A stretch of DNA of 64,000 nt from an uncultured bacterium (GCA_964603725.1 CAZRWW010000010.1:34935-98934); one strand, 5' to 3'. Counted from the stretch's first letter, positions 33,166 to 64,000 are shown. Notes: generated by a model not told the origin, from the letters alone. Made by a program: numbers and translations.

Positions 33166-34173
33166 TCAGCGGATGATCGTCCACCCCCCCCGCCCATCGC
33201 GGCAGAAGATGAAGCTGATGTAGTTGGCCTCTTCCTCGGCCTGGTCGGCGAAGTAGACGACCGACCTGTTGGTGACGGAGTCGATCGGCTGGTAGAGACG
33301 GCCACCGCCAAAGGGCCTGAACTCGAGGTCGGAGGTGTCGAGATCGGCCAGGTGCCACTCGTCGTCTTCCCACAGATACTTGAACTGCCCCAGGGTCTCC
33401 TGCTCAAAGGCCTGCGGGGTCATGTAGTGCGCCCGCTGCAGATCCGCGTTCCGTGCTGCTAGCGACCGCTTCAGGGCATCCATGTCTTCGCTCTGCAGGA
33501 CATTCCAGAATCTCTTGACCTCTCCGGTCAACGCCACGCGATCGGCGTCGGTGATGGGCTCAGGTGGCAGAGCCATCCAGGACCAGGGTGGGAGAGGCAT
33601 GCTGGCGGGGAAGCTCTGCCTCCCGAGCAGCGTGTGCTCGCCCTCGACTTCGAAGCTAAGTGCGCCACCTGGCGTGGGTACTTCAGGCCCGCCGGAGGAG
33701 GGGGACGGAGAACCTGGCGGCGGGGGGGATCCCGGCGGCGGCGTCTTGACTTGCATGCGCAGGAGGCTCGTCTTTGTGTCCGGCGGCAGGGCGTGCTCGC
33801 GGACAAACACCTCCAGCCGGACTTCTCCCGGGGTGGGGCCGTCCCCGAGCGTCAGGCGGACGGAGATCTCGTTCAGTCCATCGGCAAGCCAGCGATTGAT
33901 CGGCATCTCGGTCGAGACGGTGCCGCGGCCAATGTCGTCGGCCAGAACCGGTCCGTCATTGACCCGAATGTCCCACGGGCGGCCGCCCGCCGTGATACTC
34001 AGCGTGTAATACGGTTCTCGCAGATCCATGGGCATCCTTTCCAAGGTCGCCTGGCTTGCCAGGCCTGCTGCTGCCGCAAGTATGAGCACAGCGGCGGCTC
34101 GGACACTACCCCTTCTGCAGAACAGGCTGCTTACGGAATGGGAACTTCTTCCCTTCCACGATCTTGACCTCAT
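33166..34173 (-). CDS. Hypothetical secreted protein with signal peptide and a Pro-rich linker
   Basis: Hydrophobic AAAVLILAAAAGLASQA with an AxA cleavage site. Low-complexity PPPGSPPPPGSPSPSSGGP segment. No recognisable domain. Start is uncertain, between 34104 and 34197. Confidence 0.45.
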   Translation of the reverse strand: MRSRSWKGRSSHSVSSLFCRRGSVRAAAVLILAAAAGLASQATLERMPMDLREPYYTLSITAGGRPWDIRVNDGPVLADDIGRGTVSTEMPINRWLADGLNEISVRLTLGDGPTPGEVRLEVFVREHALPPDTKTSLLRMQVKTPPPGSPPPPGSPSPSSGGPEVPTPGGALSFEVEGEHTLLGRQSFPASMPLPPWSWMALPPEPITDADRVALTGEVKRFWNVLQSEDMDALKRSLAARNADLQRAHYMTPQAFEQETLGQFKYLWEDDEWHLADLDTSDLEFRPFGGGRLYQPIDSVTNRSVVYFADQAEEEANYISFIFCRDGRGGWTIIR

Positions 34174-35965
34174 TCCCGTACTCTTCTCCGCCCTCAAGAG
34201 CTCCAGTTCGTTCGGTCTTCCCCTTGCCCTTCTTCCGCAGTCCCTCGTGTTGGATCTCCGCTCCTACGTGGTAGTAAGCGCGCCAGCCGAGCACAATGCC
34301 CGACCAGGCGAACTCGCCGTCGATATAGAGCCCCTTCTCTTCGAACGCGCCGGTCAACTCGCCGCTCAGCACCGTCTTTGCATATCCCTCAATGCCCGCG
34401 CAGAAGTTGATGATGACAATGTGGAGCTCGACAGAAACCTCGGGCTTGATCATCAGCTCGAGTTCTCCGCCAATCTTCCCCTCGACCGGTTCGCGCTTCA
34501 TGTCGACACCCGTCACCGAAAGCGTTCCCTCGATTGTGGCTTCGGCAGAAAGCCAGATGGCCATGACCCCCTTGGCGCCGATCACCTCGTTGCCGATTCC
34601 CTTGGCGATGCGCCGCTTGACCTTGGCAATAAAGGTTCCGAGGGCAGGCACAATGTGGCAGAGAATGTCCAGGATGTCGACGCGCCCCATGATGCCGATC
34701 AGCGGTGAGAAGCCGACTGTCACATCATACTTGTACTCAACAAGGGGGCCATCGTCCTGTTCTTCGTACCCCCAGCTCCCCTTCAGCACGAACGTGGGCC
34801 AGGTGAACTCCAGCTCGACGCCGCCGATGTAGTCAATGCAATCGGCGACGTATTCCACCATGCCCTTGGTGTCATTCAAGAGCTGGAGCGCGGTGTTGAT
34901 TTCTTGCTCGTAGCTTGCCTTAAGGCTTTTCTTGTGTTGGTCGCTCTCGACGGAGATCTCCCCTTCGACAGTGAAACTGGAATCCACCTTGGTCTTGCGC
35001 CGCTGGCCCGCCTTGCGCTCCGCCTGAGTCGAATACCCCGCGCTGATGCCGGCCTCCCAATGCAGGTCGGGGAAGACCTCGATCGTGACCTCGGCCGGCT
35101 TGGTGGTCTGGCAGGCGGAGAGCTTGACGCGAGATTCCTTAGGCTTAGCCTTATAAGGCCAGATGATCTTGCGGATGTTCTGCTCAAGAGCGTAGTCCTT
35201 GTGGCATGGGAGATGGAAGGACCCACCCGCATCGGGCAGCGCGGGTTCGAGACCGGGCACGGAGATGAGACGGTTGGCGTGCCTTTCGCACGGTCCGGCC
35301 CCGATCTTGGTCGTGACCTTGATCTCGCCGCCCTTCTTCGCGCCACCGACGACTTGGAACCGGGGCTTCTCCCCGGCAGGGATTTTCCCCGGCACCTCGA
35401 GCTTGTACTCGCGTTCGGGGTCCGCTCCGGAGAGGGTGAAGCCGTCGACGCGGCAGGTGTCGGACTTCTTGCCCTCACCCTCGGTGGCGCCTGCGCCGGC
35501 GCCCGCTTCGGCCTGGTCAGCGGTCGCCGCGCCGGCGGGGGCGCCAGTCGTCGCCCCTGTGTTGGTGTCCGCGCCCTCGCCCTCGGTCGCGCCGAGCCTG
35601 CTGGGATCGGCAACCGTGGCCGTGTCCCCCGCCAGCGCGCTCGAGGAGATGCCGGTCGAGACCATGGCGGCCGTACAGGGCTGGGGGGGTGAAAACAGGA
35701 TGCGCCCGGTCTCGATCCGCGCGATCAGGGCCTCGCGCAGCTCGTACGTGTCGGTGGGAAGGTGAGTGATGTCGCCCTCGGCCAGCTGGAGGACTTCCAA
35801 GAGGCTCCGGACCAGCGACCGATTCTCGGGGGCACGCAAGTAGGGAGCCAGCGTCTCCGTAAGCTGGGTCCGCACCGGTCCCGAAAGACGCCGGTCGGGG
35901 TTGCCCGGGTCGGGGGAGAGCTGCAGCTCAATTTCCAGGTCGATCTTGCGGAGGATGGTTTTCAT
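34106..35965 (-). CDS. Hypothetical 619-aa lysine-rich protein of unknown function with atypical composition for this genome
   Basis: Complete ORF. It is K/E/I-rich and lower in GC than block 1, and sits at the edge of the T6SS island. No recognisable motifs. Confidence 0.45.
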   Translation of the reverse strand: MKTILRKIDLEIELQLSPDPGNPDRRLSGPVRTQLTETLAPYLRAPENRSLVRSLLEVLQLAEGDITHLPTDTYELREALIARIETGRILFSPPQPCTAAMVSTGISSSALAGDTATVADPSRLGATEGEGADTNTGATTGAPAGAATADQAEAGAGAGATEGEGKKSDTCRVDGFTLSGADPEREYKLEVPGKIPAGEKPRFQVVGGAKKGGEIKVTTKIGAGPCERHANRLISVPGLEPALPDAGGSFHLPCHKDYALEQNIRKIIWPYKAKPKESRVKLSACQTTKPAEVTIEVFPDLHWEAGISAGYSTQAERKAGQRRKTKVDSSFTVEGEISVESDQHKKSLKASYEQEINTALQLLNDTKGMVEYVADCIDYIGGVELEFTWPTFVLKGSWGYEEQDDGPLVEYKYDVTVGFSPLIGIMGRVDILDILCHIVPALGTFIAKVKRRIAKGIGNEVIGAKGVMAIWLSAEATIEGTLSVTGVDMKREPVEGKIGGELELMIKPEVSVELHIVIINFCAGIEGYAKTVLSGELTGAFEEKGLYIDGEFAWSGIVLGWRAYYHVGAEIQHEGLRKKGKGKTERTGALEGGEEYGNEVKIVEGKKFPFRKQPVLQKG

Positions 35966-36154
35966 GGGTGCACCTTCTCGCCTGACCGAGGGCGGGTGGA
36001 ACTGCGTCCGTCCCTTCCGATGGCTTCACGAAGGTCCGTAGACGGTCATCAACCTTGCGCTGGACCCGGCAGGGGGACCAGGCCGCAGTCTTACTAGCTA
36101 TCAGGGTAGCACCCTGTCGCGGGGGGCGGCAACGGGAGAGCGGTGCCTAGAATC

Positions 36155-37450
36155 CAGCGCCTCCGATTCGAGCGATGTCGGAGGGTGCTCACCGAAGGGC
36201 TGTTTTCTGCAGACCTCCCATGAGCAGCAGCTCTCCGAGGCTCTATCGCCCAAGTTCACACCCCACGGGCAATTGGAGCGCCCCGGCGAATGCACCTCGC
36301 CCGAGGTCGCTACTCGCGAACTTGTGGTCGTCTCCGCAGTACCCTCCCGGGACACTCCGCTCAGCCCGGTCAACTGCGCGCCAGCAGACCTATGCGCTCC
36401 CGGGCGGCCAACACGAGTTCCATCGAGGGGTGGCCAGCGCTGAGCCGCAGCCACCAACACCGCGCGTGACGCACTACCCGCCCCGGCAGGTGGCTGATGG
36501 CGTAACGGATCGCCTTCAGCCGCTTCGTCACCCACTCGCCCCCCAAGACCAACCGCTTTAGCGCCGTGTTCAAGTTCAGCGCCAACACCATGATCGCCCA
36601 CCAGGCCGCGTTGGCACCGAACGACCCCGAGGGCAGTTTGCCGCCGGCCAAGCCATGCTTCATCTCCCTGTGGATGCCTTCGCTCGTCCCGCACCGCTCG
36701 CGATACCACCCAATCAACTCCTCACCATCGATCGCGCGGTTCGTCGCGATCCCGAACACCTTGTAGCGCCCCCTGTGCACCAAACTCCTTGACCGGAAAC
36801 GGCAGATCCTGCTGGACGCGGTAGCGCAACAACCGGTGGTTGTAACCAACCTTATCCGATTGCAGATACACGCGCCGCACACCCTGCGGCAATCCCGCCA
36901 ACGCCTCGGCGAGCACCCGCAGGATCTCATAGCCGGCCGACGCGTTGCCGTCCCGGAACTCCGAGTGCATGACCAAACCCTGCTCGACCCAATACACGTT
37001 CAGCGGTTGATACCCCTTGAAGCCCCGGTAACAACACAGCGCCTCCCGCTTCTCGCCCGCCACCAAGGTGGCATCGGCGTCCAGCGTGGCCTGTTCCTGT
37101 GCCGCACACCGCTGCACGAACCCCACCATCTCCCGGTTCACCGCCGCCAACCCTTGCAAGGTCGGCTTCGGCGTCGGAATGAGGGCCTTGTGCGCCTCGC
37201 GCAACTTCTTCTGCTCCGGATAGTGAAACTCCGTCAAGTAGCAAAACGTCGCGGTGGGCGACGGCACACTCCGGTGCCGGCTCTTGCGCCACCGCCGCTC
37301 CCGCGCCCGGCGCTCCCGCCGGAAAACGCCGTGACACTCCACTTGGCGCAGCAACCGACCGAGGCCCTCGTCGTCCTGCCGCACGCGCAGATCGTCCACA
37401 CTCTCCCCACCAGCCAACTGCGTCAGCATCAGCAACAACACGATCCAAGT
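36155..37450 (-). mobile_element. IS1380/IS4-like insertion-sequence remnant. The transposase is split across two frames and 5'-truncated by the IS630 insertion.
   Basis: The track ORFs 36370..36930 and 36722..37903 together encode a DDE transposase C-terminal region (..YRGFKGYQPL..EFRDGN.. and GKLPSGSFGANAAWWAIMVLALNLNTALKRL), but the two frames differ. The 3' 340 bp (36155..36494) recurs at 46360..46700. Confidence 0.5.
36370..37450 (-). pseudogene. Frameshifted, N-terminally truncated IS1380/IS4-family transposase gene
   Basis: Two overlapping reading frames (36370..36930 and 36722..37450) each carry part of the transposase. The upstream part of the 36722..37903 ORF is antisense to the IS630 transposase and so is not real. 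Confidence 0.5.
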
Positions 37451-37513
37451 AGCTTCGCCTGATTCGGAATAACCGCGCTTTGATAGATCTTCCTTGACGG
37501 GCCGCCGGAATAG

Positions 37514-37576
37514 AAAGAGACCTCCCTTGTCAACACAACCCTCCCCAGACGGGGAGAGCAATAGGGAGGTCTCTTT
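37514..37576 (+). promoter_or_regulatory. Perfect 13-bp inverted repeat that sequesters the GGGAGG Shine-Dalgarno of the IS630 transposase
   Basis: AAAGAGACCTCCC (37514..37526) pairs with GGGAGGTCTCTTT (37564..37576), which ends 1 nt before the GTG start at 37577. A nested CTCCCC/GGGGAG repeat sits in the loop. Confidence 0.5.
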
Positions 37577-38620
37577 GTGCGCGCTCGTCTGTTGCCACTC
37601 GGCCGCGCCGCCCAGCGGCGCATCCTGGGCCTCGATCGTAAGACCCGCAACGCGGATGTCCGCATCCGCTGTCGCATTGTCCTGAAGGTCAGCCAAGGCC
37701 AAAGCTGTCGGGCCGCAGCACTTCAGCTGGGCTGCGTCCCCTCCACCGGCTGGCGCATCGTACAGCGATTCCGCTGCCTGGGGGAAGCAGGTTTGCTCGA
37801 CGGACGCTGCGACAACGGCACGCCCAAGCTGGACGACGACTTGCGCCAAGCCATTGAAGCGATCCTCTACAACTCCCAGCCAGACTACGGCTGCCAGCGC
37901 CAAAGCTGGACCCTGGAGATCCTGGCCCGCGTCATTGCCGACGCCCTACAGGTTCAGCTCTCTGTCGGCCACCTCTGGAAGATTCTGAAGACCATGGGCG
38001 TACGCTGGGGTCTGCCCAGGCCCGTCGTGGCCTGCCCCTGGAAGGCCGCCCGCCGCAAGCGCCGGCTGCGCAAGCTGCACCGCTTGGCCCGACATCCCGC
38101 CGCCCGCGAGGTCGTCGTCTATGCCGACGAAGTCGATATCCATCTGAACGCCCGCATCGGTCGCGACTGGATGCCGCGTGGCTACCAGCGCCGCCTGCTC
38201 ACCCCCGGCCAGAACGCCAAACACTACGTCGCGGGAGCCTATGATCCCTTGCGTCAGCGGATGGTCTGCGTCTCGGGTGATCGCAAGGTCAGTTGGCTGT
38301 TCCTCAACCTCTTGCGCGCGCTCCTCCAAGCCTACCCGTGGGTCCGCCGGATCCACGTGATCCTCGACAACTACGTGATCCACAAGAGTCGACTGGTCCT
38401 GACTGCGCTGCGCGCCATGCCCAAGACCCAGCTGCCCTTCTTGCTGCCCTACTGCCCGGACCACAACAAGATCGAGAGGGTCTGGAGAGACCTGCACGCC
38501 AGCGTCACTCGTAATCATCGCTCCCCCGACCTCAAAGCCCTGATGAACAACGTCTACAAGTACCTCAGCGCTCACTTCCAGGTGTTCTATGGTTCCTGCT
38601 TCACGCCGATCAGGACTTGA
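37577..38620 (+). CDS. IS630-family (Tc1/mariner-like) DDE transposase
   Basis: N-terminal HTH, then a DDE region (..VVYADEVDIHLN.. ..ILDNYVIHKS..) typical of IS630 transposases. GTG start. Confidence 0.8.
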   Translation: MRARLLPLGRAAQRRILGLDRKTRNADVRIRCRIVLKVSQGQSCRAAALQLGCVPSTGWRIVQRFRCLGEAGLLDGRCDNGTPKLDDDLRQAIEAILYNSQPDYGCQRQSWTLEILARVIADALQVQLSVGHLWKILKTMGVRWGLPRPVVACPWKAARRKRRLRKLHRLARHPAAREVVVYADEVDIHLNARIGRDWMPRGYQRRLLTPGQNAKHYVAGAYDPLRQRMVCVSGDRKVSWLFLNLLRALLQAYPWVRRIHVILDNYVIHKSRLVLTALRAMPKTQLPFLLPYCPDHNKIERVWRDLHASVTRNHRSPDLKALMNNVYKYLSAHFQVFYGSCFTPIRT

Positions 38621-38757
38621 TGCAGAATCAGGCGAAGCTATTCAGTCATCGGTTCATCATTGGCGCCTGCGACGAGCATGAACATGCTTGTCGATCGAGT
38701 CGCGCAGGCGGACCACGTGGGCCAACTCCAGGTACAGCGGCAGGCCGCCCAGGGCGG

Positions 38758-39318
38758 TCAGACCCGGCAGGGAGGCGCCGGAAACCATCCGGAACGGAAG
38801 CACCTTCTGTGGCACCATGGATTCTGCTCGTTGGTGATGGTAGGTCTTGCTATCACCTTCCTATCTACCTGATCTCTTAGGACCCAACGAGGCTTTTCCT
38901 TCTTCAGGCGGTGGATCCGGGCCGAGGCAGCTCTATGACCGCTTGGGCTGTCCAGATCTTCGCCGCCCTTCTGCGAGCTCTTCCCCACCAGTGGATCACG
39001 TTGTGGCGAGGGACACCCGTTCTTGGCGAGCTCGACCTGAACGTAGGCCTTGTCGCCCATCTCCAGGCCCTCGGGCAGGTCGAGCACGTCGTCGTGGCGG
39101 TTCTGCCGAATCACGTCCGAGACTTGGTCGAGATCCTTCCCGCCCTCGGTACGCCTGTGATCTTGATGGGCGCGCCGTTGCTCACGAACTCGGTCAGGAT
39201 CTGGAGGGACGCCTGCCAACAACCCACTCGCCGGGACAGGTCCGAGGGCCGCGATCAGGCGCGACGTGAGCTTGACCTCGTGCTTCGAGTCGGTGCTCTT
39301 GCTGTGGCGCTGCGGCAT
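38758..39318 (-). CDS. Orphan member of the PAAR C-terminal domain family, possibly degraded
   Basis: MPQRHSKSTDSKHEVKLTSRLI.. aligns with the start of the 48888..49772 protein (MDLKFTKDTDTKHTVKLEARLV..) and with internal segments of both PAAR C-terminal extensions. The longer track ORF 38758..39774 fuses it with out-of-frame sequence. Confidence 0.4.
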   Translation of the reverse strand: MPQRHSKSTDSKHEVKLTSRLIAALGPVPASGLLAGVPPDPDRVREQRRAHQDHRRTEGGKDLDQVSDVIRQNRHDDVLDLPEGLEMGDKAYVQVELAKNGCPSPQRDPLVGKSSQKGGEDLDSPSGHRAASARIHRLKKEKPRWVLRDQVDRKVIARPTITNEQNPWCHRRCFRSGWFPAPPCRV

Positions 39319-39332: not shown

Positions 39333-39765
39333 TCAGGTCCGGGGTCGGGGCGCGAGGCTGGCGATCATCCCGTCCACCGCGGCGCCCAGGGTCTCCATGG
39401 TCTGCTTCGAGAAGGCGGCGCTGAAGTTGCAGGTCGTGCCCTCGTGCATCACGAAGACGAGCTTCTGGAACACCACCTTGCCCTCGGCCGGCGCCCACTC
39501 GTACACGGCCCCGCAGACGGAGGCACCGTCGGGCCGCTGCCTCGTTCTGCGGCTCAGCAGCTCGGCGCCGGGATGGCTGTCCAGGGAATGCGCGATGCGC
39601 CCCTCGGCATAGTCCTCGATGTCCGTGCTGTTGGGCCGCGCGTTGACCTGGATGAAGAGGATGTGCTGGTGCCCGCCCGCCTCCGGACCCAGGATGAAGT
39701 GGACCAACTGGTCCTTTCAAGCGTCCGGGAGCGCGATCCTGAAGGTGCCGTTGAACCTGTTCATA
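39333..39765 (-). pseudogene. DUF1795/Eag-family chaperone pseudogene; TGA replaces the conserved Trp of the LPDGW motif
   Basis: Minus-strand translation MNRFNGTFRIALPDA[TGA]KDQLVHFILGPEAGG.. aligns with the intact paralog at 50014..50460 (..FKLLLPDGWEDRTVHCFVGPEDVG..). The TGA lies at about 39718..39720. The downstream body is conserved. Confidence 0.5.
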
Positions 39766-39811: not shown

Positions 39812-41050
39812 CTATTCGAGGCAGTGAATGCCGTCAATGCCCCCGTAGTATATCCTGCCGTCTTCGTCCATGATCATCCTGGTCAAGATGGCCGATTCCA
39901 GCCACTTCGTCAGGATCTCCTGGCCGTCCGCCGAGACGTGCACCAAGACGTGGCCGCACCCCGCGAGGACCGAGCCGTCGGCCAGGACGCTGACGGCGAC
40001 GTCGGGGACGCTGCCGGGGAGCGTGTAGGACCAGACCGCGGCGCCGCTGCGCACCTGCTGGAGCCTGTTGCCGACGACCACGTAGACCGTACCGTCCGGC
40101 GTCGAGGCCGGCGGCTGGGCCGAGGCATCGCCCTTGCCGAGGTCCAGTTCCCAGGCCACGTTGCCGTCTGCAGCGAACTGGCTCAGGCGGGGTGTCTTCT
40201 GCTCGGCGTCCACCAGCAGCGCCTGCCCGTCGGGGGTCATGGCCAGCGAGACGACGGCCGGAGTGACCACCTCGACCACGCCCTTCTCCTCCGTCTCTTC
40301 CCCCCGGAAGAGAAAGAGCCGATCCTCCGTCGCGACGGCGGCCCGCCCCCCGTCGTCGGACAGGGCGACGCCCCGCAGCCGGACCGGGAAGCGAAGCGCC
40401 GACAAGGTCTTCATGCGGTCGGGCAGGTAGCGGATGAAGCGGGAGACCGCGGGGACGGGGTTGTCCTCCGGCGTGCTCACCGGCTCCTCCCGCTCCTCCA
40501 GGCAGTAGACGACCAGCTTGTCCTGCCGCAGGTAGGCGTGCAGAACCACGTCCGGGGAGACGGACGCCAGGTGCACCTTCTGCGCGGCCTGGCCCGCATC
40601 GTCCAGCATGACGCAGTAGCCGGCGTGGTCGAGGGTCAGGATGCCGTCCTCCTCCAGCGCGAAGAGGTGGTTGCCGTACAGAGGATGGGTCCAGCGCACA
40701 TCCCCGCCCGCACGGTCTACGGCGACCAACAGGTCGCCGTAGCAGACCACCAGGAGGTCCCCGCGTAGGCCCAGACAGCGCGGCCGCCGACCCGCGGCCG
40801 CGGGGGCCGATGCGCTCCAGACGACGTCTCCCGCCGGGTGGCCGGCCACCGGCAGGAAGGAGCTGTGGCGCTGGTCGGCGTACATGCGACCGTTGAGGAT
40901 CGTCGGACCAGTCATCATATCCTCCGCATTCTCCAACGTTCTCCGATCTCTTTCGGATCCGCCCCGGCATCCGCTCAGGAGGGGCCAGGACGCCAGGAGC
41001 AGGACCGCCAGGGACAGGATTCGCGCGCCTCTCATGGATTTCTCCTGCAT
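39812..41050 (-). CDS. Lipoprotein with PQQ-like beta-propeller repeats; candidate immunity protein for the upstream metalloprotease-like effector
   Basis: Signal peptide with lipobox LLSGC. Repeated ..DG.V(W/Y).. segments consistent with a beta-propeller. It lies immediately downstream of the 1338-aa effector in the PAAR operon. Confidence 0.6.
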   Translation of the reverse strand: MQEKSMRGARILSLAVLLLASWPLLSGCRGGSERDRRTLENAEDMMTGPTILNGRMYADQRHSSFLPVAGHPAGDVVWSASAPAAAGRRPRCLGLRGDLLVVCYGDLLVAVDRAGGDVRWTHPLYGNHLFALEEDGILTLDHAGYCVMLDDAGQAAQKVHLASVSPDVVLHAYLRQDKLVVYCLEEREEPVSTPEDNPVPAVSRFIRYLPDRMKTLSALRFPVRLRGVALSDDGGRAAVATEDRLFLFRGEETEEKGVVEVVTPAVVSLAMTPDGQALLVDAEQKTPRLSQFAADGNVAWELDLGKGDASAQPPASTPDGTVYVVVGNRLQQVRSGAAVWSYTLPGSVPDVAVSVLADGSVLAGCGHVLVHVSADGQEILTKWLESAILTRMIMDEDGRIYYGGIDGIHCLE

Positions 41051-46229: not shown

Positions 46230-46359
46230 GCCCCAGGAACGTCGGTAGGATTCCTCAGTTCCCGAAGATCATACCAGCAGCAAGCCCCAGTGTCATCTGT
46301 TGGCAATCAGCACTCACTCGACGGTAATGACTGGGGTGGGGAGAAGTCAACGGAGCCCC

Positions 46360-46700
46360 GGGAATCCACCGCCTCCGATTCTGGCGATGTCGGAGGGTGC
46401 TCATCGAAGGGCTGTTTTTGCAGGCCTCCCATGAGCCGCAGCTTTCCCAGGCTCTATCGCCCAACTTCGCACCCCAAGGGCAATTGGAGCGCCCCTGCGA
46501 ATGCACCTCGCCCGCGGTCGCTACTCGCGATCTTGCGGTCTTGCTCGCAGTACCTCACGGGACACTCCGCCCAGCTCGGTGACCCGCGCGCCAGCAGGCC
46601 GATGCGCTGCCGAGCGGCCAACACGACGTCCGTCGAGGGGTGGCTGGCGCTGAGCCGCAACCACCAACACCGCGCGTGACGCACCACCCGCCCCGGCAGG
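46360..46700 (-). repeat. 340-bp partial copy (about 88% identity) of the 3' end of the IS1380/IS4-like element at 36155..36494
   Basis: Directly alignable nucleotide blocks, for example GATGTCGGAGGGTGCTCA.CGAAGGGCTGTTTT and CACCAACACCGCGCGTGACGCAC.ACCCGCCCCGGCAG. The copy lacks the stop codon, producing the chimeric ORF 46454..46975. Confidence 0.8.
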
Positions 46701-49772: not shown

Positions 49773-50013
49773 TCTATTCCCCTAATGAACTTGGCCCGGG
49801 GGCTGTCGGGAACATCCCAGAACCGAACACGCTGAGCCGGTAGCCCGACGGTTGGCGGCCGGCAGCACACCCTTAGGGCCATGCCGCCCCCAGCTCAACG
49901 AAGCACCCCAACAGCCGCCTACGTCATTCCCGCCACTGAGGACTACGTCACCCCGCGACACCGGTCTACGTCACCGCTGCGATCGCCGCTTACGTCACCG
50001 CCGCGACCGCCGC

Positions 50014-51634: not shown

Positions 51635-51980
51635 GCCTCAGTGACGCTAGCGAAATCCCACGATTCGTCACGATCATACAAGCGGCCGGACTTGCTGTCA
51701 CCTGGTTGTCAGCGGAGCTTGTCTTTGCGTAGGCACCTGACTCAGCTTCTTGGTTATCGGACGGATCGCCCCAGCCCCGCCCGGGAGGTTAAGACGCAAC
51801 AGGAGATACAGATGTAAGCATTCCTGGCGCTGTAGCGACCCGCCGGTCACGCGCCTGCCTTGCACCCCCTGCGTCTGGCCCATAACCTCGCCACAGAATC
51901 GCACAATCCCGATTGACGGTCGCCCCCCGAACTCACTACTATCGACGTGTTCGGCAGCGCGTAGATGGCGCGGAAGGTCA
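51635..51980. promoter_or_regulatory. Divergent intergenic region between the PAAR2 effector operon (minus strand) and the ClpV-TssBC-Hcp-VgrG-TssEFG operon (plus strand)
   Basis: About 350 bp of non-coding sequence sits between two divergently oriented T6SS gene sets. No specific promoter motif could be assigned by eye. Confidence 0.3.
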
Positions 51981-54769: not shown

Positions 54770-55237
54770 GTGCAAATGGCGGAGAAGTACCAGCGGCTGA
54801 TTGACGCTCTCCCCGCTGAGCTCAAGGAGAATGTTCAGGCCATGGACCTGAGCAACACGATCATCGTGGGGGAGTTCGGTGAGCACAAGCAGAACGAACT
54901 GGTTCCCGTGCCGACCATCAAGAAGGCCTTCGAGACCTACGAGCCGTCCGTCGAAATCTCGGTTGAGACGGTGGATGGCGACACTGCCAGCGAGGTGCTT
55001 CGCTTCCGCGAACTGAAGGACTTCGAGGTCGAACGGGTCGTGCCGCAGTCCAAGGCGTTGTCGGAGCTGAGTGCGGCCGTTGACGTGTATGCCGATCTGA
55101 AGGGCACGCTCGGCAAGTCCCCCAAGTGGAAAAAGCTGTTCGAGGACCCCAAGCTGCGGGCGGGTCTGGTGGAACTGCTCGATCAGATGCTGAAGGTCAT
55201 TGATCCGGAAGACAAGACCAAGGTGGCAGAGAAGTAA
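54770..55237 (+). CDS. tssB: T6SS small sheath subunit TssB (VipA-like)
   Basis: 155 aa. The motif TIIVGEFGEH matches the conserved TLVVGDFKGH segment of VipA. It lies immediately upstream of a ~460-aa TssC-sized gene. Confidence 0.6.
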   Translation: MQMAEKYQRLIDALPAELKENVQAMDLSNTIIVGEFGEHKQNELVPVPTIKKAFETYEPSVEISVETVDGDTASEVLRFRELKDFEVERVVPQSKALSELSAAVDVYADLKGTLGKSPKWKKLFEDPKLRAGLVELLDQMLKVIDPEDKTKVAEK

Positions 55238-55255: not shown

Positions 55256-56638
55256 ATGGCAGATGCAGAACAGAAAGAAACGCGTGAAAAGGTCAAGCTT
55301 GAAGAGAAGGAGCTTGAGAAGATCAAGGAACAGCTTCTCCCGATGCTCCCGGCGCTCTTTCCCCGAGGAGGCACATTCGTCGGGGAGATGTTGCCCAGTG
55401 CTGGCTTGTTCGACCCCGAAGATCCCGGCGCCACCAAGGAAGCGGTTGAAGCACTCACCCCCTACCAGTGGCTAGCGCTGGCGATGCGCCTGCGCCTGGC
55501 CCGCCGGATGCTCGACGAGGCCGCCACCCTGACAGATGCTGTTCAAGCGGCTGAGAAGCAACACACCCGGCACCAGGAAGCCCTGGACAAGAATCTTCGC
55601 TCGGTCTACGAGCAAATGCGTCCGCTGGAGATCCAGTACCGCACGCTGAACCAGTTCTTCGACAACGCTGCGGCATCCCCGGGGGCAAATGTCTCGGTGG
55701 AGATTTACAACACCCCACCAGCGTCGTTGTTCGAGGACGCGAGCGAGTCGCTGGCCGTGCTCACGAAAGAGATCCAGGGAACCAATGCCGAGGCATTTCA
55801 CCAGAGCAAAGCCAAGTCCTTGCTCGTGATTCCCGGGCACTGGGCTGAGAACAAGTATCTCAATCGCCTCGAAGCTCTGCTGGCGGACAACCGTGTCAGC
55901 TTGTTCACAGACATTTTCGCCGGTCAAAAGCGCATGGACAACTACGACGCCGTACAGGACAAGCTGGAGCTCGAGACCTACAAGGGGCTCAAGCAGGGTT
56001 CTGAGGGTCGGGCGCACATGTCCGTCTGCGTAAATGAGATCTGCGGGCGCCAGAAGTACGCCTGGGAAGATGATCACATCTGGATTCCTGCCTCCACAAC
56101 TGTGGCCGGGCGTGTGTACAATGTGGACCAGGCATGGGAGGCCATCAAGGAGGGTGCGGCTGGCTACAAGCGCGGGAAAGCCCTGGTCTCCTCCCCGATG
56201 GTGCGCATCAAGCTCAACAACGCCAGCACGGGCGCTCTGGCCAACACGTACAATTTGATTCCCATGATCGAGTCGAAGGGCGACGTGTTTATCATGGGTG
56301 TCGGTTCGCTCTGTACCGACGAGACGATGAAGCAGTACCCCACCGTGCGGATCTACGATTTCATCCAGAAGTCGATGCTGGATTACAGTCGCACACTCCT
56401 GTTCGAGCGGTTCAGCGAGAAGTCGAAGGAAACCGTCAAGGCAGGCCTGCGGCGGTTCTTCGATGGCCTGGTGAAAGAGGGTGTGATCGAGTCCTACTCA
56501 GATTTGACCGTGGAACGGGATGGGAAGCCCGGGGAAAAGGGGAAAGCGCGAGTCTTGGTGAATGTCAAATTCTACGACATCGTGACACAAGTCCGAACGG
56601 GCGTGAAATTCGACGAAGAGGGCAACGTCGAGAAGTAG
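55256..56638 (+). CDS. tssC: T6SS large sheath subunit TssC (VipB-like)
   Basis: 460 aa. Position and size fit the TssB-TssC pair. The assignment rests on context and on homology to the downstream paralog; no signature motif was verified by eye. Confidence 0.55.
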   Translation: MADAEQKETREKVKLEEKELEKIKEQLLPMLPALFPRGGTFVGEMLPSAGLFDPEDPGATKEAVEALTPYQWLALAMRLRLARRMLDEAATLTDAVQAAEKQHTRHQEALDKNLRSVYEQMRPLEIQYRTLNQFFDNAAASPGANVSVEIYNTPPASLFEDASESLAVLTKEIQGTNAEAFHQSKAKSLLVIPGHWAENKYLNRLEALLADNRVSLFTDIFAGQKRMDNYDAVQDKLELETYKGLKQGSEGRAHMSVCVNEICGRQKYAWEDDHIWIPASTTVAGRVYNVDQAWEAIKEGAAGYKRGKALVSSPMVRIKLNNASTGALANTYNLIPMIESKGDVFIMGVGSLCTDETMKQYPTVRIYDFIQKSMLDYSRTLLFERFSEKSKETVKAGLRRFFDGLVKEGVIESYSDLTVERDGKPGEKGKARVLVNVKFYDIVTQVRTGVKFDEEGNVEK

Positions 56639-56642: not shown

Positions 56643-58184
56643 TTGAATCGAGGGGCGGCGAGCCATGACCCAGCAGCCTGGAAAGGCAAGCTGGAACGGC
56701 AACCGGAAAGGCAAGCCGGCAAGGGCACGGCGGGATGGGTGGGATGGATGGCGGGGCAGGGCTACAGCGAATTCCTAGCGGGCTTCAATCTGAGCTGTGG
56801 CATGCGAATGCCGAGCAGCGGGTCGGTGTTTGCAGAACACGCCGACGGTTCGCTGGAGCTGGCCGCGGACGCGTCGAATCTTGACCGGAGGCTACTGAGA
56901 CGCCGGCTGCGGTGCCTGCGGGAGATCCTGGAAGACGGACAGGACATCGAGGCGGCGCGAGCGCAAGCTGAGGCCCGCCATGGGGCTCTGACGCAGCGAC
57001 TCGAGGGAGCGCTGCGAGCCGTCTACAGACAGACGCGGCCGATCGAGGCGGTCTGGCGAGGTCTGGGGGTCTTTTACGAGGAGGCGGCGCCTGAGGGCAA
57101 GGAGATCCCGGTTTGGGTCTGGAATGGCAACTCCCCGAAATGGGTCACTGTAATGCGCGACCTGGATCCAACATTCGTCCTCGCCCCGGGGTGTCAGGAG
57201 CCGCCGCCGCAGTTGGACGAATGGAACGGCACCTACCCGCAGCCGATTCTGTTCGGTGACCGGGAGCTGCCTGCCTACGACGAGCCTGTGGGATCTCACG
57301 ACCATCGGGAGGAGACCAGCCCCGGACCCGGCCGGCAGGACGGTCCGGAGACCCTGCCATCACGCTATGCCGCGTGCGTGAACGAAGTGGAAGGCCGCGC
57401 TGCCTACCCCTGGGAGGACGAGCCGCTCTGGGTTCGGCCGAGTTTCGCGGTAGCTGGCGTGCACGTTCGGCACTGGCGGGGAGGGTACTGGCGGAGCACC
57501 GGGGCAGGGCACTGGACTGGACGGCTGCAGCGTGCCCGCAAGACGAGGGTGCGCATGCAGGTGACCCAGGCCGTCACCTTGCATGAGGCGGGCTACGCCG
57601 CCATCACGGAGGACGGCCGAGGAGTGATGGCCATCGGCGATCGGACATTCCCGTTGCCGGGGCATCATCCGGCGGGACTCGGGGCCCTCAAGCTGGAAGC
57701 GGCCGTCACCCGGATCGTCTGCCAGCGCTTTGCAGCGCGCGCCCGCAAAGCCACGCCGGGTCCTGGCCCGGGGCTTGACCCCCGACAGGAAGCCGAGGCC
57801 GTCCTGCACGATTTCAAGGTGCACCGCGTGCTTGATGACTACAGCGTCAGGCGGCAGTTGGGCGCGGGTCCGGAAGCCCCCATGGAGATGACGCTCACTG
57901 TGGACGGGGTCTCTGCCAGTTCATGGCTGATCCGCCGCACGCGCGAGGAAGTCGTCTCGCGGTCGCGGGCGGACAAGCTGCCGATGCCCGAGCGGTTGGA
58001 GGCCGCCGTCCGGAGACGGGAAGCAAAGCCTGAGCCGGTCGCGGTCGGCGTGTCTGTGAACGCGCCGGACGCCAAACCACAGGAGGGGCTGGAGCCGATC
58101 CCCGCCAGAGAGAGGGGTGGAATTGGGGAGTTCATCAGCTCCCTGTTCGGACAGATGTTCCGCGGACGGGACCGGAAGCGCTGA
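56643..58184 (+). CDS. Diverged TssC-like paralog (513 aa) with markedly higher GC and Arg content than the neighbouring genes
   Basis: Alignable with the 55256 protein (LRSVYEQMRPLEIQYRTLNQFFDNAA..VSVEIYN versus LRAVYRQTRPIEAVWRGLGVFYEEAA..IPVWVWN, and MSVCVNEICGRQKYAWEDDHIWIPASTTVAGRVYNV versus YAACVNEVEGRAAYPWEDEPLWVRPSFAVAGVHVRH). Confidence 0.5.
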   Translation: MNRGAASHDPAAWKGKLERQPERQAGKGTAGWVGWMAGQGYSEFLAGFNLSCGMRMPSSGSVFAEHADGSLELAADASNLDRRLLRRRLRCLREILEDGQDIEAARAQAEARHGALTQRLEGALRAVYRQTRPIEAVWRGLGVFYEEAAPEGKEIPVWVWNGNSPKWVTVMRDLDPTFVLAPGCQEPPPQLDEWNGTYPQPILFGDRELPAYDEPVGSHDHREETSPGPGRQDGPETLPSRYAACVNEVEGRAAYPWEDEPLWVRPSFAVAGVHVRHWRGGYWRSTGAGHWTGRLQRARKTRVRMQVTQAVTLHEAGYAAITEDGRGVMAIGDRTFPLPGHHPAGLGALKLEAAVTRIVCQRFAARARKATPGPGPGLDPRQEAEAVLHDFKVHRVLDDYSVRRQLGAGPEAPMEMTLTVDGVSASSWLIRRTREEVVSRSRADKLPMPERLEAAVRRREAKPEPVAVGVSVNAPDAKPQEGLEPIPARERGGIGEFISSLFGQMFRGRDRKR

Positions 58185-58240: not shown

Positions 58241-58672
58241 ATGGCAGAGAGACTCGGTCGGGTCGAAGTGATGATCGAGGGGCAGCCCGAGCAGGAGGTA
58301 CTCACTTTCGTGCTCGAGGCCGAGACACCCGTCGACTACAAAGGCGCGCCGCAGGGGCAACCCGTCTTCAGGCGGCTGACATTCACGACGCGTGTGATGC
58401 AGGGGATGCACGATGCAGTGGGCTGGTGCCTCAACGAGCCGCGCACCGCACACAACCTTCGCAACGGGACTGTCAAGTTCTACGACAAGAATGGCGAAAA
58501 CTACCAGACGCTCGAGTGGACCAATGGATTCATCGAAGATGCATCGTGGGTCCTACCCGATGCGGAGAAGGACGAGCAGCAGAGAGTCTACATGAAGTAC
58601 CAGGTAGTTGCACAGCGGATCAACATCGGCGGCACGGAACTTGCGAACCCGTGGCCCAACATCTACGGGTAG
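58241..58672 (+). CDS. Hcp-like tube protein paralog 1
   Basis: 143 aa. Size, position between sheath and VgrG, and similarity to the next ORF (VKFYDKNGENYQTLEWTNGFIEDAS versus VIEFYDQAQVVLKAEFTNALVADYR). Confidence 0.5.
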   Translation: MAERLGRVEVMIEGQPEQEVLTFVLEAETPVDYKGAPQGQPVFRRLTFTTRVMQGMHDAVGWCLNEPRTAHNLRNGTVKFYDKNGENYQTLEWTNGFIEDASWVLPDAEKDEQQRVYMKYQVVAQRINIGGTELANPWPNIYG

Positions 58673-58713
58673 AGACCCTATTCCAGAAGCTGAAATGAAG
58701 GAGGATCGCAGTC

Positions 58714-59136
58714 ATGGCATTTGACGGAAGAGTCGTCATCGACGGTAACGAGATCGACAAGATCCGCAATGTGCAGTTCGGTGTCCGGAACAAGGTCGAC
58801 GATATCACCACCAACCCCTCCGGAAGCACCCGTAACAACCTGATCATCATCGAGCGCGAGCACGACCAGTCGAACTTCCTCTGGGAGTGGGCGGTGAGCG
58901 CCAAGAAGGAGAATCGCAAGAACGGCGTCATCGAGTTCTACGATCAGGCTCAGGTGGTTCTCAAGGCAGAATTCACCAACGCGCTCGTTGCCGACTACCG
59001 CATCATGCTGGGCGAAACGCAGTACGAGCGCACGGCCATGCAGATCCGTGAGCGTGTCGAGATCTCCACAGAGCAGTTGGCGCTCGAAACCCTCGGTGGA
59101 AGGGTTGAGCACAGCGATCAGTGGGATATTCGTTAG
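58714..59136 (+). CDS. hcp: Hcp (TssD) tube protein paralog 2
   Basis: 140 aa. Typical Hcp size and context immediately upstream of vgrG. Sequence pattern is consistent with the Hcp family. Confidence 0.6.
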   Translation: MAFDGRVVIDGNEIDKIRNVQFGVRNKVDDITTNPSGSTRNNLIIIEREHDQSNFLWEWAVSAKKENRKNGVIEFYDQAQVVLKAEFTNALVADYRIMLGETQYERTAMQIRERVEISTEQLALETLGGRVEHSDQWDIR

Positions 59137-59227
59137 CAGGGCGGCCTCCTGATCAGGATATCGTCGGCCGGCCGGAGGCTGCTGATTCCGGCCGGCCCGC
59201 CAGCCTGTGCTAGCCGGAGGTGCCCTC

Positions 59228-61201
59228 ATGCATGTCGTGACAGAGATCAAGATTGGCGGCGCCTCGTTGCCATTCAATGTCAGGAGCATCCGCTGGCTCC
59301 AGTCGCTCTACGACTACGACCGATTCACGATCACGTTGGCAGACCCCAATCTGGTGGACGGTTCGGGTCCTGTAGCTGACATCACTCAACGCCTGGCCGC
59401 GCAACTCGGTCAGCCGGTCATCGTTGATCTGCAGTCAGGCGGTGAGGAGTGGCGCGAGCACCTGGCGGGATTCGTCACGGGGGTTCGCGGGCGGTACGTC
59501 CAGCGAGGGGTGGAGGTCGTGTTGGAGGGAGCTGGGGCCGCGCACACGCTGGACAAGGCCGTTCACACGCGGGTCTTTCAGCAGTTGACCTGGAAGGAGA
59601 TTGTCGAGCAGATTCTCGCGCCCGCTTCTAGCCAACTGAAGGGCTCTACTGTGAAGCTGGGGCCCTTCGAATCCGTCAAGGTCCCTTTCTGCTGCCAGTA
59701 TCAGGAGACGGACTTTGCTTTCCTACGGCGTGTGTGCGGCCGGCTCGGGCTCGTGCTGTGTGCTGGCGGGAATGGTCTCGTGCTGGTGCCGGCCAAAGAC
59801 TTCAAGGGCATTCCCGGGTGTGATGTCCGGAGGGAGCTCATTCCCGGGGCCAACTGCCGCTACGTGGAATCGCGTGTCCAGGCGGTTCCGGCAATGACAG
59901 AAACGGCAGGCTACCAACACTACGGCGAGCGCGGTCTCCAGGATGGCAACTACGGCGATGAAGAGACGCGCACGTGGTCGTCGACTCCCGAAGCTGCCGG
60001 CGGTGGGCTGACCGCCACGGGCCTGGATTCTGGCCGCACGCTGTATACGTCTCCGGGGTCGGTCCATGAGAGCGGCGTGCACTGGTCCCAGGAGGAGTTC
60101 GACAACCGAGTTGCCCGGTGGGGGATGCACGCTGCAGGTGCGGTCGTGCGTTTCGAAGGAAGGACCTGGGTCCCCGACCTCAGGCTGGGACATCAGGCAG
60201 TGGTGAAGCCGGAGAGCGCCCTGGCTGTCGACTGGGTCAGCAGTGAGAGCATCCTGGTGACCTCTGTGGAGCACACGATCGAAGCTGGCGACTACACCAA
60301 CCTGTTTGTAGGCTGTTCGGTGCCAGCCCCACCGCTGCTGAACCCGAATGACTTTCCGCCGCGGCAGCGCTTCGTAACCTTGCCGGCCCGGGTCGTGCAG
60401 AGTGATGATCCGAGCCGAGTGGGGCGCGTGCGGGTGCAGCCGCTCGTGCTGGAGAGCAGCTGGCTTCCCGAGACGATCCACGTCCGTGTGGCAGCCCGAT
60501 CGGCCGGGCCCGATCATGGCGAGTTGATGCTTCCGGAAGTGGGAGACGAGGTTCTACTGGCGTTTCATCCGGACGCTTGCGAGGAGCCGTACGTCACGGC
60601 CATCTTCTACAATGGCACGCACAAGACGCTTCCGGACAAGCTTCCGGCGCACACCGAGCTGGAGCAAGCGCAAGTCGATAAGAACGACCTCAAGTGGGTA
60701 CTGACTCGCGGCGGAAACGCACTCATCTTCGATGATACCCAGGGCAAAGAACGTCTCCTGGCAGTGACCAAAACCGGATCCTTGGAGCTCAGCGAAGTCG
60801 CCGCCGGTCCGCACATGGCGCTGACGGTGCGGGATGGCAGCGAACCGATGTGCATTCTCACGTTCGACAAGAAGGGCCAAGTCACGTTGAAGGCCACCAA
60901 TGTGCTCTTCGACATCAAGGAGTCGATGGAGATCAAAACGGGCGAGCACTTCACGCTGGATGCGAAGGGGAAGATCACCCTCAAGGCGGGTGAAGACTAT
61001 GATCTGAAGGCCCAGGGCAAGGTCCAGACGAAATCGGGAACTGACACGATGCTCGACGCGGGGACCAAGGCCACGGTCAAGTCCGGAACGGACACCAGTG
61101 TCCAGGCGGGGATGAACCTGAAGCTCCAGGGGGCTGCTCAGGGTGAGCTCAAATCCGGAGCCATCATGACGATCAAGTCTGGCCTAGTGAAGATCAACTG
61201 A
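59228..61201 (+). CDS. vgrG: VgrG (TssI) spike protein: gp27-like hub, gp5 OB-fold and a C-terminal beta-helix
   Basis: gp5-OB/Phage_base_V-like segment ..HVRVAARSAGPDHGELMLPEVGDEVLLAFHPDACEEPYVTAIFYN... C-terminal repetitive K/T/G-rich beta-helix (..LKAGEDYDLKAQGKVQTKSGTDTMLDAGTKATVKSGTD..). Confidence 0.85.
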   Translation: MHVVTEIKIGGASLPFNVRSIRWLQSLYDYDRFTITLADPNLVDGSGPVADITQRLAAQLGQPVIVDLQSGGEEWREHLAGFVTGVRGRYVQRGVEVVLEGAGAAHTLDKAVHTRVFQQLTWKEIVEQILAPASSQLKGSTVKLGPFESVKVPFCCQYQETDFAFLRRVCGRLGLVLCAGGNGLVLVPAKDFKGIPGCDVRRELIPGANCRYVESRVQAVPAMTETAGYQHYGERGLQDGNYGDEETRTWSSTPEAAGGGLTATGLDSGRTLYTSPGSVHESGVHWSQEEFDNRVARWGMHAAGAVVRFEGRTWVPDLRLGHQAVVKPESALAVDWVSSESILVTSVEHTIEAGDYTNLFVGCSVPAPPLLNPNDFPPRQRFVTLPARVVQSDDPSRVGRVRVQPLVLESSWLPETIHVRVAARSAGPDHGELMLPEVGDEVLLAFHPDACEEPYVTAIFYNGTHKTLPDKLPAHTELEQAQVDKNDLKWVLTRGGNALIFDDTQGKERLLAVTKTGSLELSEVAAGPHMALTVRDGSEPMCILTFDKKGQVTLKATNVLFDIKESMEIKTGEHFTLDAKGKITLKAGEDYDLKAQGKVQTKSGTDTMLDAGTKATVKSGTDTSVQAGMNLKLQGAAQGELKSGAIMTIKSGLVKIN

Positions 61202-61203
61202 GC

Positions 61204-63368: not shown

Positions 63369-64000
63369 TTTCCGCAGAGGCCAGCAGTGCCCCGCGGGGC
63401 AGGCCTGTAGCTGCAGCAACGGGACGTGTTCCCGAAGTGCGCTTCCGACGAAAGCACTGGCTTAGCTTCACCTGCGAGGAGGCGATCACTCTGGCGCTCG
63501 ATGCGATCGGCCGTGGCGAAGAGGGCCTGGAGCAGATCCGCGTGTTCATGGAGGGCTCCCATCGAGCACCGCTGCCGGACTTCTCGGAGAAGACGGGAAG
63601 CATTGTTCCTTCCTCCCGCACCAGCATCACACTTGGGCAGCAGATTGAGCTCCACGTGCGACGCGCGGGTCTTTTCGAACGCTTCCCGAGCGTGCTCTTC
63701 TCCGATTCGGCGGCCTACGTCAATGCCAGGGGTGATGCGGCGTCGGTTCAGCACGTGGACCAGAGCGAAGAAGAGGCCCGCCGCTATCTTCAGCCTTTCG
63801 ATCGCGAGTCGATGTTCGTACGGGCGCGCAACCGTTTCTGGACCAGCATGATCGCTGGAGCGCGGCCCGGTGAGCTCTACCGCGACTTCGTGTGGAGGCT
63901 CTTTGGGCTTCCGGAGGCATGCCGGGCGCTTGTCCGCCAGATGCTACCGGAACGCGATCAAACCGTCCTCACGTTCCTCCTGCCGCATCTGGGTCAGATT
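63365..64000 (+). CDS. tssG: TssG-like baseplate subunit; partial, continues beyond the window
   Basis: The frame is open from the GTG at 63365 (GTGA overlap with the tssF stop) to the window end. Its position immediately after tssF is the conserved tssF-tssG order. No signature motif was verified by eye. Confidence 0.45.
   Translation, partial: MISAEASSAPRGRPVAAATGRVPEVRFRRKHWLSFTCEEAITLALDAIGRGEEGLEQIRVFMEGSHRAPLPDFSEKTGSIVPSSRTSITLGQQIELHVRRAGLFERFPSVLFSDSAAYVNARGDAASVQHVDQSEEEARRYLQPFDRESMFVRARNRFWTSMIAGARPGELYRDFVWRLFGLPEACRALVRQMLPERDQTVLTFLLPHLGQI

Follow-up and report, generated by a model that had tools for sequence, protein, structure and literature searches.

In type VI secretion systems (T6SS), TssB and TssC form the contractile sheath that surrounds a tube of Hcp on a baseplate of TssEFG, and the sheath is recycled by ClpV. 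The subtype of the Bacteroidota, T6SSiii, was reportedly described by Russell et al. in 2014. The defining features of T6SSiii are the TssNQOPR membrane complex and the synteny of tssG, tssK, and tssN, and its genes are often spread over several loci; a survey reported it from 443 Bacteroidota genomes, but from no genome among the more than 20,000 complete ones of other phyla (PMC10781749). Which of the membrane complexes, that of T6SSi or that of T6SSiii, is ancestral was left open (PMC10781749). Here, we analyzed 64,000 nucleotides of DNA from an uncultured bacterium (GCA_964603725.1, CAZRWW010000010.1:34935-98934), referred to in full length as the window. A preliminary description had assigned its positions 33,166 to 64,000 to a horizontally acquired, lower-GC T6SS island. 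The window carries an undescribed T6SS variant, whose tail genes include an additional paralogue of the large sheath subunit, TssC2, next to two PAAR effector cassettes.

Genes were called by the frame bias of the GC content at third codon positions (GC3), and the proteins were scanned against Pfam and NCBIfam. The genes clpV-tssB-tssC-tssC2-hcp1-hcp2-vgrG-tssE-tssF-tssG, closely packed in one orientation at 52.0-64.0 kb, encode a T6SS module of cytoplasmic tail and baseplate components (Table 1). The generic parts found in the window comprise the TssB and TssC sheath, the Hcp tube, the VgrG spike, the PAAR tip, and ClpV. Family matches bore out ClpV, TssB (weakly), TssC, two Hcp proteins, VgrG, and two PAAR proteins, and a T6SS with an effector arsenal had been rightly recognized, in a gene list that was for the most part correct. 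ClpV scored 649 bits over its full length against TIGR03345, under the equivalog cutoff of 885, and its alignment to relatives points to the GTG at 52044 as the likely start codon. A sigma-70-like promoter match (51913-51942, plus strand) lies upstream of clpV in a divergent intergenic region of ~400 nt. TssB was 57-67% identical to its relatives, and TssC and both Hcp proteins exceeded the gathering scores of PF17541 and PF17642. The best solved match to Hcp was 6bdc, which we take to be Flavobacterium johnsoniae Hcp1, and VgrG matched solved VgrG chains (E 2e-16). Among the NCBIfam T6SSi equivalogs, no match was obtained for TssC, TssE, TssF, TssG, or Hcp1, and TssB fell far under the cutoff; Hcp2 hit only a phage-tail model, below threshold. 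In operation, TssB and TssC would polymerise into a contractile sheath round the Hcp tube on the TssEFG baseplate, sheath contraction would drive the VgrG/PAAR spike outward, and ClpV would recycle the sheath.

TssC had only seven close homologues among 5.8e9 clusters, one of which is identical and derives from the 101,425-bp source contig. The full clpV-to-tssG order recurs in four other independent contigs, with TssC 48-65% identical. One of these, L001, is from a Candidatus Eisenbacteria metagenome-assembled genome (MAG; GCA_017991665.1); in a fifth contig, L013, the order is seen from hcp to tssG. Wherever a relative's locus extends that far, the conserved cluster begins with clpV. A HMMER pass over 1.84e9 representatives gave 144 TssC hits, in which the clade's own cluster scored 608 bits and the next hit 186 bits; the next named hits belong to Candidatus Eisenbacteria / Eiseniibacteriota. 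An outgroup Eisenbacteria locus, L014, encodes a TssC with 28% identity. This is a rare subtype, so far seen in a handful of metagenome contigs, the sole named one being the Candidatus Eisenbacteria MAG, and we found no paper linking Eisenbacteria with a T6SS. The divergent subtype, the extra TssC paralogue, and the recurring gene order are new beyond the preliminary description. In L014, HerA_C-like and PDZ-domain genes (L014:14282-16092) lie between vgrG and tssF, where the clade has tssE. A single 294-residue open reading frame (ORF) spanning Hcp1 and Hcp2 in L013 (847-1731) was rejected as a fusion, as its junction residues look like out-of-frame read-through and it probably reflects an assembly indel.

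The baseplate assignments proposed earlier differed in how well they stood. PF05947 was weakly matched by five of the five TssF family members (best E 2.6e-4 in one scan and 9.6e-5 in another), and the TssF-family profile matched the N-terminus of the solved TssF from enteroaggregative Escherichia coli (6giy) in register (E 0.016); on these weak but consistent sequence matches, the 591-aa protein is assigned as TssF. TssG was 43-50% identical to the genes following tssF in the relatives, one of which matched PF06996 (E 0.0095), and the post-TssF gene of the outgroup L014 has a strong-class precomputed PF06996 match, so that a weak match, the outgroup, and gene position speak for TssG. The 129-aa protein, placed by position, size, and motif, is the probable TssE; it contains a conserved G-x-x-P-x-D-P-x-F-G motif, which we presume to be gp25-like. 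Sequence and profile searches of the PDB returned nothing significant for TssG or TssC2.

The remoteness of the sheath and tube from canonical T6SSi models, a weak T4 gp19 match of Hcp2, weak matches of the TssC profile to pyocin and Afp2 sheaths, and the lack of an identified membrane complex could point to a phage-tail-like particle, or to a contractile injection system of the extracellular kind, instead of a T6SS. We regard such an identity as highly improbable, because the locus encodes a ClpV double-AAA+ protein with Clp_N, a sheath split into TssB and TssC, a VgrG fusion spike, TssF and TssG, PAAR proteins, and DUF1795 proteins, and no tape-measure, tail-fibre, or terminator genes occur within the cluster.

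TssC2 aligned with TssC by hhalign with a probability of 99.3% (E 2e-20) over 351 columns (TssC positions 41-440), and by this alignment it is judged a genuine TssC paralogue. All four relatives with a locus that covers this position have the gene there. The outgroup locus L014 lacks it but otherwise has the same parts, and TssC2 is therefore read as a clade-specific duplication. The Afp2/3/4 and Pvc2/3/4 genes provide a precedent for more than one sheath-family gene in tandem in one contractile-tail locus. By analogy, we hypothesize that TssC2 could be a specialised sheath subunit, forming for example a baseplate-proximal or terminal layer as in Afp/PVC.

Neither TssJLM nor TssN-R was recognised at the T6SS loci of the relatives. 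A conserved operon adjoins clpV in L005, L007, and L014, and L009 shows its first gene only before the contig end; L005:410-6228, L007:522-6475, and L014:104-4894 are on the minus strand. The first product has 480 aa, and its N-terminus resembles TssK (aligned in register with a canonical TssK by hhalign with E 3.9e-4 and a probability of 36%); PDB searches with this family gave nothing significant. The second product, a tail-anchored protein of 311-314 aa, was considered as TssL/DotU and rejected, since it has no similarity to DotU/TssL. The third is a ~800-aa protein with an N-terminal P-loop, a transmembrane segment, DO-GTPase2 matches, and a faint IcmF_N match. In L005 and L007, a fourth gene encodes a 289-aa protein, of which the L005 copy matches GAP1-N2 and GAP1-M; the L014 locus ends earlier. 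The DO-GTPase2-like nucleoside triphosphatase (NTPase) and the TssK-like gene are co-operonic beside clpV in two divergent Eisenbacteria T6SS lineages. As a hypothesis, this operon may supply the envelope anchor. The Eisenbacteria MAG L001 is also without it beside clpV.

On the other side of the cluster, the gene after tssG in the relatives encodes a ~365-aa protein that has a signal peptide; next come a secreted protein of 2,000-2,700 aa and then PAAR/DUF4123 modules. A structure model of the ~365-aa protein (predicted local distance difference test, pLDDT, 75) best matched chain F of the type IX secretion system translocon entries 8gl6 and 6h3i, then FadL/TodX barrels; chain F in both is presumably PorV. 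The ~365-aa protein was thus rejected as a TssK candidate on its modelled PorV/FadL-like barrel fold. The same PorV-like/giant protein pair lies beside a canonical T6SSi locus (TssJ/TssK/DotU) in L012, and since that locus has its own TssK, the pair is read as accessory; it might form a T6SS-associated surface module. The 14-strand PorV/FadL-like barrel and giant protein map to L011:10001-19037, L013:7105-16324, L012:10001-18215, and L001:19312-21395. The earlier expectation that the remaining core genes might follow just beyond 64 kb gains no support from this arrangement, and the sole TssK candidate is in the relatives' separate operon beside clpV, absent here.

The reported GC drop at about 33 kb was confirmed: GC content falls from 0.706 (1-33165) to 0.640 (33166-64000), with medians per 500-nt window of 0.708 in the left flank versus 0.642 in the right region, and the lowest 1-kb window of the right region is at 0.563. 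Neither the sliding-window GC nor the codon-usage profile was uniform. The figure of near 50% for tssB and tssC was too low (0.588 and 0.580). The proteins described as K/E/I-rich deviate in the stated direction, with K+E+I fractions of 0.13-0.27 in the right region versus 0.06-0.15 in the flank. The shift is also present at synonymous sites, where GC3 was 0.879 +/- 0.024 for 13 flank genes versus 0.765 +/- 0.033 for 15 genes at 47-64 kb (Mann-Whitney p=1.2e-5). Dinucleotide-signature distances to the flank were 90-115 in every 4-kb window right of 32 kb, versus 26-84 within the flank.

The right region is a compositional mosaic. Low GC3 (0.69-0.83) is common to 32.7-36.1, 46.3-51.7, and 51.7-64 kb, whereas the three genes of the PAAR1 operon (39.8-46.2 kb) have flank-like GC3 (0.88-0.92). 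Composition and codon usage therefore deviate, as claimed, at 32.7-36.1 kb and 46.3-64 kb, but not at 39.8-46.3 kb. The left break at ~32.7 kb is without a tRNA, integrase, insertion sequence (IS), or repeat; the whole window contains no tRNA and no Rfam family, and protein family scans found no integrase in it. Island borders in the form of a tRNA or att site, an integrase, or direct repeats were not found, the right border being outside the window, so that the region has no boundary of the classical island kind. Its IS elements lie within it and are not its borders, contrary to the view that IS debris bounds it.

The Karlin codon-usage distance (B) of the T6SS core was 0.24 to its own flank, 0.14-0.16 to the T6SS loci of L007, L009, and L001, and 0.15 to the PAAR2 cassette; in L001, T6SS and flank are alike (B = 0.13). 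The PAAR1 cassette shows 0.17 to the flank and 0.33 to the T6SS core. In codon usage, the PAAR2 cassette and the two genes at 33-36 kb go with the T6SS core: all three are unlike the 70%-GC flank and resemble the relatives' T6SS loci (64-67% GC overall versus 63% for the T6SS core). The nearer codon usage of the core to these loci than to its own flank argues for acquisition from a lower-GC relative in the same phylum. The source of these three segments would most likely have been a relative of ~64-66% GC. Horizontal acquisition, as first proposed, is plausible for 46.3-64 kb and 32.7-36.1 kb; it does not extend to the flank-like PAAR1 operon. The flank itself encodes ordinary chromosomal functions, and its 310-aa and 3,112-aa proteins both have C-terminal FlgD_ig domains, which we assume would fit an FCB-group (Fibrobacterota-Chlorobiota-Bacteroidota) organism such as a ~70%-GC Eisenbacteria.

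A native, vertically inherited T6SS, with a lower GC that would stem only from the amino-acid composition of the structural proteins and from codon preferences particular to their genes, appears unlikely. The structural proteins are indeed K/E/I-rich, GC content at second codon positions is 0.30-0.38 in tssB, tssC, and hcp, tssB and tssC of L001 likewise have lower total GC than their neighbours, and the nearest named T6SS lineages are all of the same phylum. However, the synonymous-site difference persists (GC3 0.77 versus 0.88, p=1e-5), the core is closer in B to T6SS loci of other organisms than to its flank while T6SS and flank agree in L001, and the non-structural genes at 33-36 kb and in the PAAR2 cassette deviate likewise.

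Within the region, the nested IS630/IS1380 elements and the IS fragment repeat were present as described. An intact IS630, with a DDE_3 transposase and 16-bp perfect terminal inverted repeats (TAGCTTCGCCTGATTC) flanked by a TA target duplication, sits inside the IS1380 transposase gene, which is also frameshifted. NF033539 matched the IS1380 element in fragments only (E 1.9e-25 and 1.6e-14; 89 and 53 bits, cutoff 180), and no terminal inverted repeats were found for it; it is a family remnant and not an intact element. An ORF at 46454-46975 with a weak TnsD match was dismissed, being better explained by its overlap with the solo IS1380 fragment. The two IS1380 stretches bracket the PAAR1 cassette, whose host composition at this place fits IS-mediated insertion or rearrangement within a foreign segment. 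The IS1380 and IS630 insertions would thereby have rearranged the effector zone.

The same IS copies raise the question of an assembly chimera, in which contigs of two related organisms were joined at shared IS sequences. The source is a MAG contig, and two of the three composition switches (~39-39.8 kb and ~46.3 kb) coincide with IS1380 sequence. A chimera would nevertheless need three switches, of which the one at 32.7 kb is without a repeat; the IS1380 stretches are just 89% identical over 341 nt, and the two PAAR cassettes, which have a 5' region in common, are truly paralogous. We consider a chimera very unlikely.

Both PAAR cassettes are transcribed divergently from clpV, and their promoter-like 5' regions are near-identical, with sigma-70-like matches of the form [G/A]TGACA-17-TATGAT. 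PAAR2 shared 43% identity with PAAR1 and 52% with a PAAR protein of L013, and the C-terminal domain of PAAR1 is common to PAAR2 and the 294-aa protein. The phospholipase C-like protein is, from its family match, a candidate lipase effector of the PAAR2 cassette. A 24-nt tandem repeat of 3.8 copies (49944-50033) begins in the gap that separates the gene for the 294-aa protein from the DUF1795 gene, whose 3' end it enters. In the PAAR1 cassette, the 1338-aa protein shows a weak Peptidase_M64 match (residues 818-903) and no significant match in PDB searches, and the 412-aa beta-propeller is a candidate immunity or accessory protein. The DUF1795 chaperones named in the preliminary description are present in two copies; the second carries an in-frame stop and is probably degraded or shortened. 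The adjacent fragment resembling the 294-aa protein is cut off by the IS1380 element. In L013, a PAAR2-like gene is followed by a gene whose product shares the N-terminal ~180 aa with the 1338-aa protein; this recurring PAAR and large-effector pairing indicates that the cassettes belong to this T6SS type. They would supply its spike-tip adaptors and toxins.

Table 1. Features of the right part of the window, with positions counted from the first letter of the window.
Feature	Position	Strand	Evidence or remark
Left compositional break	32660..33165		GC ~0.75-0.79 to ~0.60-0.65
343-aa protein, no assigned function	33166..34197	-	N-terminal hydrophobic segment; GC3 0.78, like T6SS block
619-aa protein	34106..35965	-	No family match; GC3 0.81
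Decayed IS1380-family element	36150..39020	-	High-coordinate end approximate; PF13701 match
Intact IS630-family element	37450..38640	+	Transposase 37577-38620; NF033545 187.7 bits, cutoff 100
Fragment resembling the N-terminus of the 294-aa PAAR2-cassette protein	39022..39309	-	tblastn 33% identity, E 2.5e-8
Second DUF1795/DcrB (Eag-type chaperone)	39333..39761	-	31% identical to first; in-frame stop near 39708
412-aa lipoprotein-like PQQ/BamB-type beta-propeller	39812..41050	-	PF13360 E 6.8e-10; GC3 0.90
1338-aa putative effector, PAAR1 cassette	41118..45134	-	HELGH zinc-peptidase motif; GC3 0.92
PAAR1	45147..46229	-	PF05488 E 3e-20; GC3 0.88
Sigma-70-like promoter match upstream of PAAR1	46268..46296	-	Inside ~70-nt stretch duplicated upstream of PAAR2
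Solo 341-nt IS1380 3'-end fragment	46362..46700	-	89% identical to 36150-36490, same orientation
336-aa zinc-dependent phospholipase C-like protein, PAAR2 cassette	47171..48181	-	PF00882 E 2.3e-8
201-aa protein of PAAR2 cassette, no assigned function	48254..48859	-	
294-aa protein of PAAR2 cassette	48888..49772	-	C-terminal ~170 aa homologous to PAAR1/PAAR2 C-terminal domains
DUF1795/DcrB, Eag-type effector chaperone	50014..50460	-	PF08786 E 1.5e-11
PAAR2	50507..51634	-	PF05488 E 4.8e-25
Sigma-70-like promoter match upstream of PAAR2	51673..51701	-	Paralogue of PAAR1 site
ClpV/TssH	52044..54725	+	Clp_N and two AAA+ modules
TssB, small sheath subunit	54770..55237	+	PF05591 26.2 bits, cutoff 24 (weak)
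TssC, large sheath subunit	55256..56638	+	Bacteroidota-type PF17541 133 bits, E 1.6e-38, cutoff 25
TssC2, 513 aa, divergent TssC paralogue	56643..58184	+	Start codon uncertain; between tssC and hcp1
Hcp1 (TssD)	58241..58672	+	PF17642
Hcp2 (TssD)	58714..59136	+	PF17642; ~24% identical to Hcp1
VgrG spike, gp27-like and gp5 OB domain	59207..61201	+	PF05954 and PF04717
Probable TssE, gp25-like, 129 aa	61204..61593	+	Position, size, and motif only
TssF, 591 aa	61593..63368	+	Weak but consistent PF05947 matches
TssG, N-terminal ~210 aa	63365..64000	+	Truncated by window end; GTG start overlaps tssF stop codon

Taken as a whole, the window most probably carries the tail and baseplate of a rare T6SS with TssC2, accompanied by IS-rearranged PAAR cassettes and acquired from a relative (probability about 0.72). 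Several points weigh against this reading. The argument for acquisition rests on 33 kb of flank standing in for the genome. The probable TssE matched nothing in HMM, profile, or PDB searches and so has no homology support, and its single-sequence structure model was unusable (pLDDT 46). Support for TssG within its own clade is a single weak match, and the role proposed for TssC2 comes from analogy alone. As the preliminary description had noted, no TssK, TssA, TssJ, TssL, TssM, or TssN-R gene was found in the window by protein family scans and comparison with relatives, and the TssK and trans-envelope membrane complex that a T6SS generically requires are thus not within the 64 kb. The window holds no homologue of any gene of the relatives' TssK-like operon, and a search with the PorV-like post-tssG protein returned no member from the source contig. 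With neither the operon nor a post-tssG homologue, the system could be incomplete.

IS rearrangement may even have removed the operon for TssK and the membrane anchor, leaving a decaying or incomplete remnant with no firing apparatus, an account that overlaps with the preferred one and that we hold to be rather unlikely. It would agree with the position of the TssK-like operon beside clpV in L005, L007, L009 (first gene), and L014, the side on which this window has PAAR cassettes and IS elements, as well as with the missing post-tssG homologue and the degradation of one DUF1795 copy and one cassette gene. On the other hand, all ten tail and baseplate genes are open, with orthologue-like lengths and tight spacing, down to the tssG start that overlaps the tssF stop. 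The lack of the operon beside clpV in L001 suggests that a split locus is a normal configuration, and T6SSiii loci are often split as well (PMC10781749).

The left flank contains further genes of note. Directly left of the compositional break, and of flank composition, a 1223-aa ClpB/ClpV-like double-AAA+ protein (28987-32658, minus strand) is ~30% identical to the T6SS ClpV and has an unusual architecture with a C-terminal peptide-chain-release-factor (PCRF) domain (PF03462 E 1e-8; TIGR00020 E 1e-10); its ORF overlaps the end of a BTAD/NB-ARC/TPR regulator (25770-29093). The 3112-aa protein (14272-23610, plus strand), which ends in one of the FlgD_ig domains, contains internal repeat units of ~840 nt at 15.0-17.3 kb that are 73-77% identical. 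It is probably a giant surface protein, showed no homology to the giant proteins beside the relatives' T6SS loci, and is followed by a 681-aa FG-GAP repeat protein (23648-25693, plus strand). Genes for a DUF362/4Fe-4S protein, a radical SAM/SPASM enzyme, and HlyD-like and MacB/FtsX-like proteins (1068-10063) look like a peptide-maturation and export cluster, and a sigma-54 activator and a histidine kinase are encoded at 10857-14071.

Compared with known systems, the sheath and tube families are, by sequence, closest to those of the Bacteroidota T6SSiii, as distant members. TssC and both Hcp proteins fall into the Bacteroidota-derived PF17541 and PF17642, and no T6SSi TssC or Hcp model matches; the locus further resembles T6SSiii in having several hcp copies, in the adjacency of tssB to tssC and of tssE to tssF, and in lacking a recognisable TssJLM. 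Unlike T6SSiii, TssC is only 24-27% identical to core representatives and lies far from the family core, scoring 133 bits against PF17541 versus 470-510 for three of those tested. TssN/Q/O/P/R and tssG-tssK-tssN synteny are missing; none was found in the window or in the 10-kb flanks of five relatives, to which the dedicated TXSScan TssN-R profiles were not applied, and tssG of the relatives is followed by the PorV-like protein. The locus also differs in its extra TssC paralogue and in its carriers: the named ones of the closest and next-closest TssC are Eisenbacteria, not Bacteroidota.

With T6SSi, the locus shares ClpV, the gp27/gp5 VgrG, PAAR, DUF1795/Eag chaperones, TssF and TssG weakly related to PF05947 and PF06996, and, in the relatives only, a TssK-like N-terminus. 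It differs in that none of TssB, TssC, Hcp, TssE, TssF, and TssG passes the equivalog models of T6SSi and no TssA, TssJ, TssL, or TssM was found in the window. The tandem of tssC and tssC2 in one locus resembles the sheath paralogues of Afp/PVC, but these have single-chain sheaths with neither a TssB partner nor ClpV, whereas TssC2 duplicates TssC itself and not an Afp-type sheath. DO-GTPase/GAP1-N2 systems have been described only as membrane-proximal conflict systems, and the term T6SS occurs 0 times in the main text of their description (Kaur et al. 2020, PMC7159879). The relatives, though not the window, have a comparable pair beside clpV, the ~800-aa DO-GTPase2 P-loop protein and the 289-aa GAP1-N2/GAP1-M protein; it differs from those systems in sitting with a TssK-like gene in the T6SS loci of two divergent lineages.

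We therefore propose, tentatively and at somewhat less than even odds, an undescribed subtype that combines a T6SSiii-related sheath and tube outside the Bacteroidota with TssC2 and, in the relatives, a TssK-like/tail-anchored/P-loop NTPase anchor unrelated to TssJLM and TssNQOPR. If so, the relatives' anchor would represent a third way, independent of the other two, to anchor a T6SS, and the subtype would serve as an outgroup for deciding the origin of the Proteobacterial and Bacteroidota membrane complexes. For its host, the locus would be a weapon against other bacteria, armed with lipase-like and peptidase-like toxins, that IS elements have moved and reshaped. The island as first described, of lower GC with a T6SS and IS elements, is otherwise unremarkable, and the interest lies in the subtype: a lineage outside the Bacteroidota that combines a T6SSiii-like sheath and tube with an extra sheath paralogue, and that has neither of the known membrane complexes close by, offers a concrete outgroup and new candidate components.

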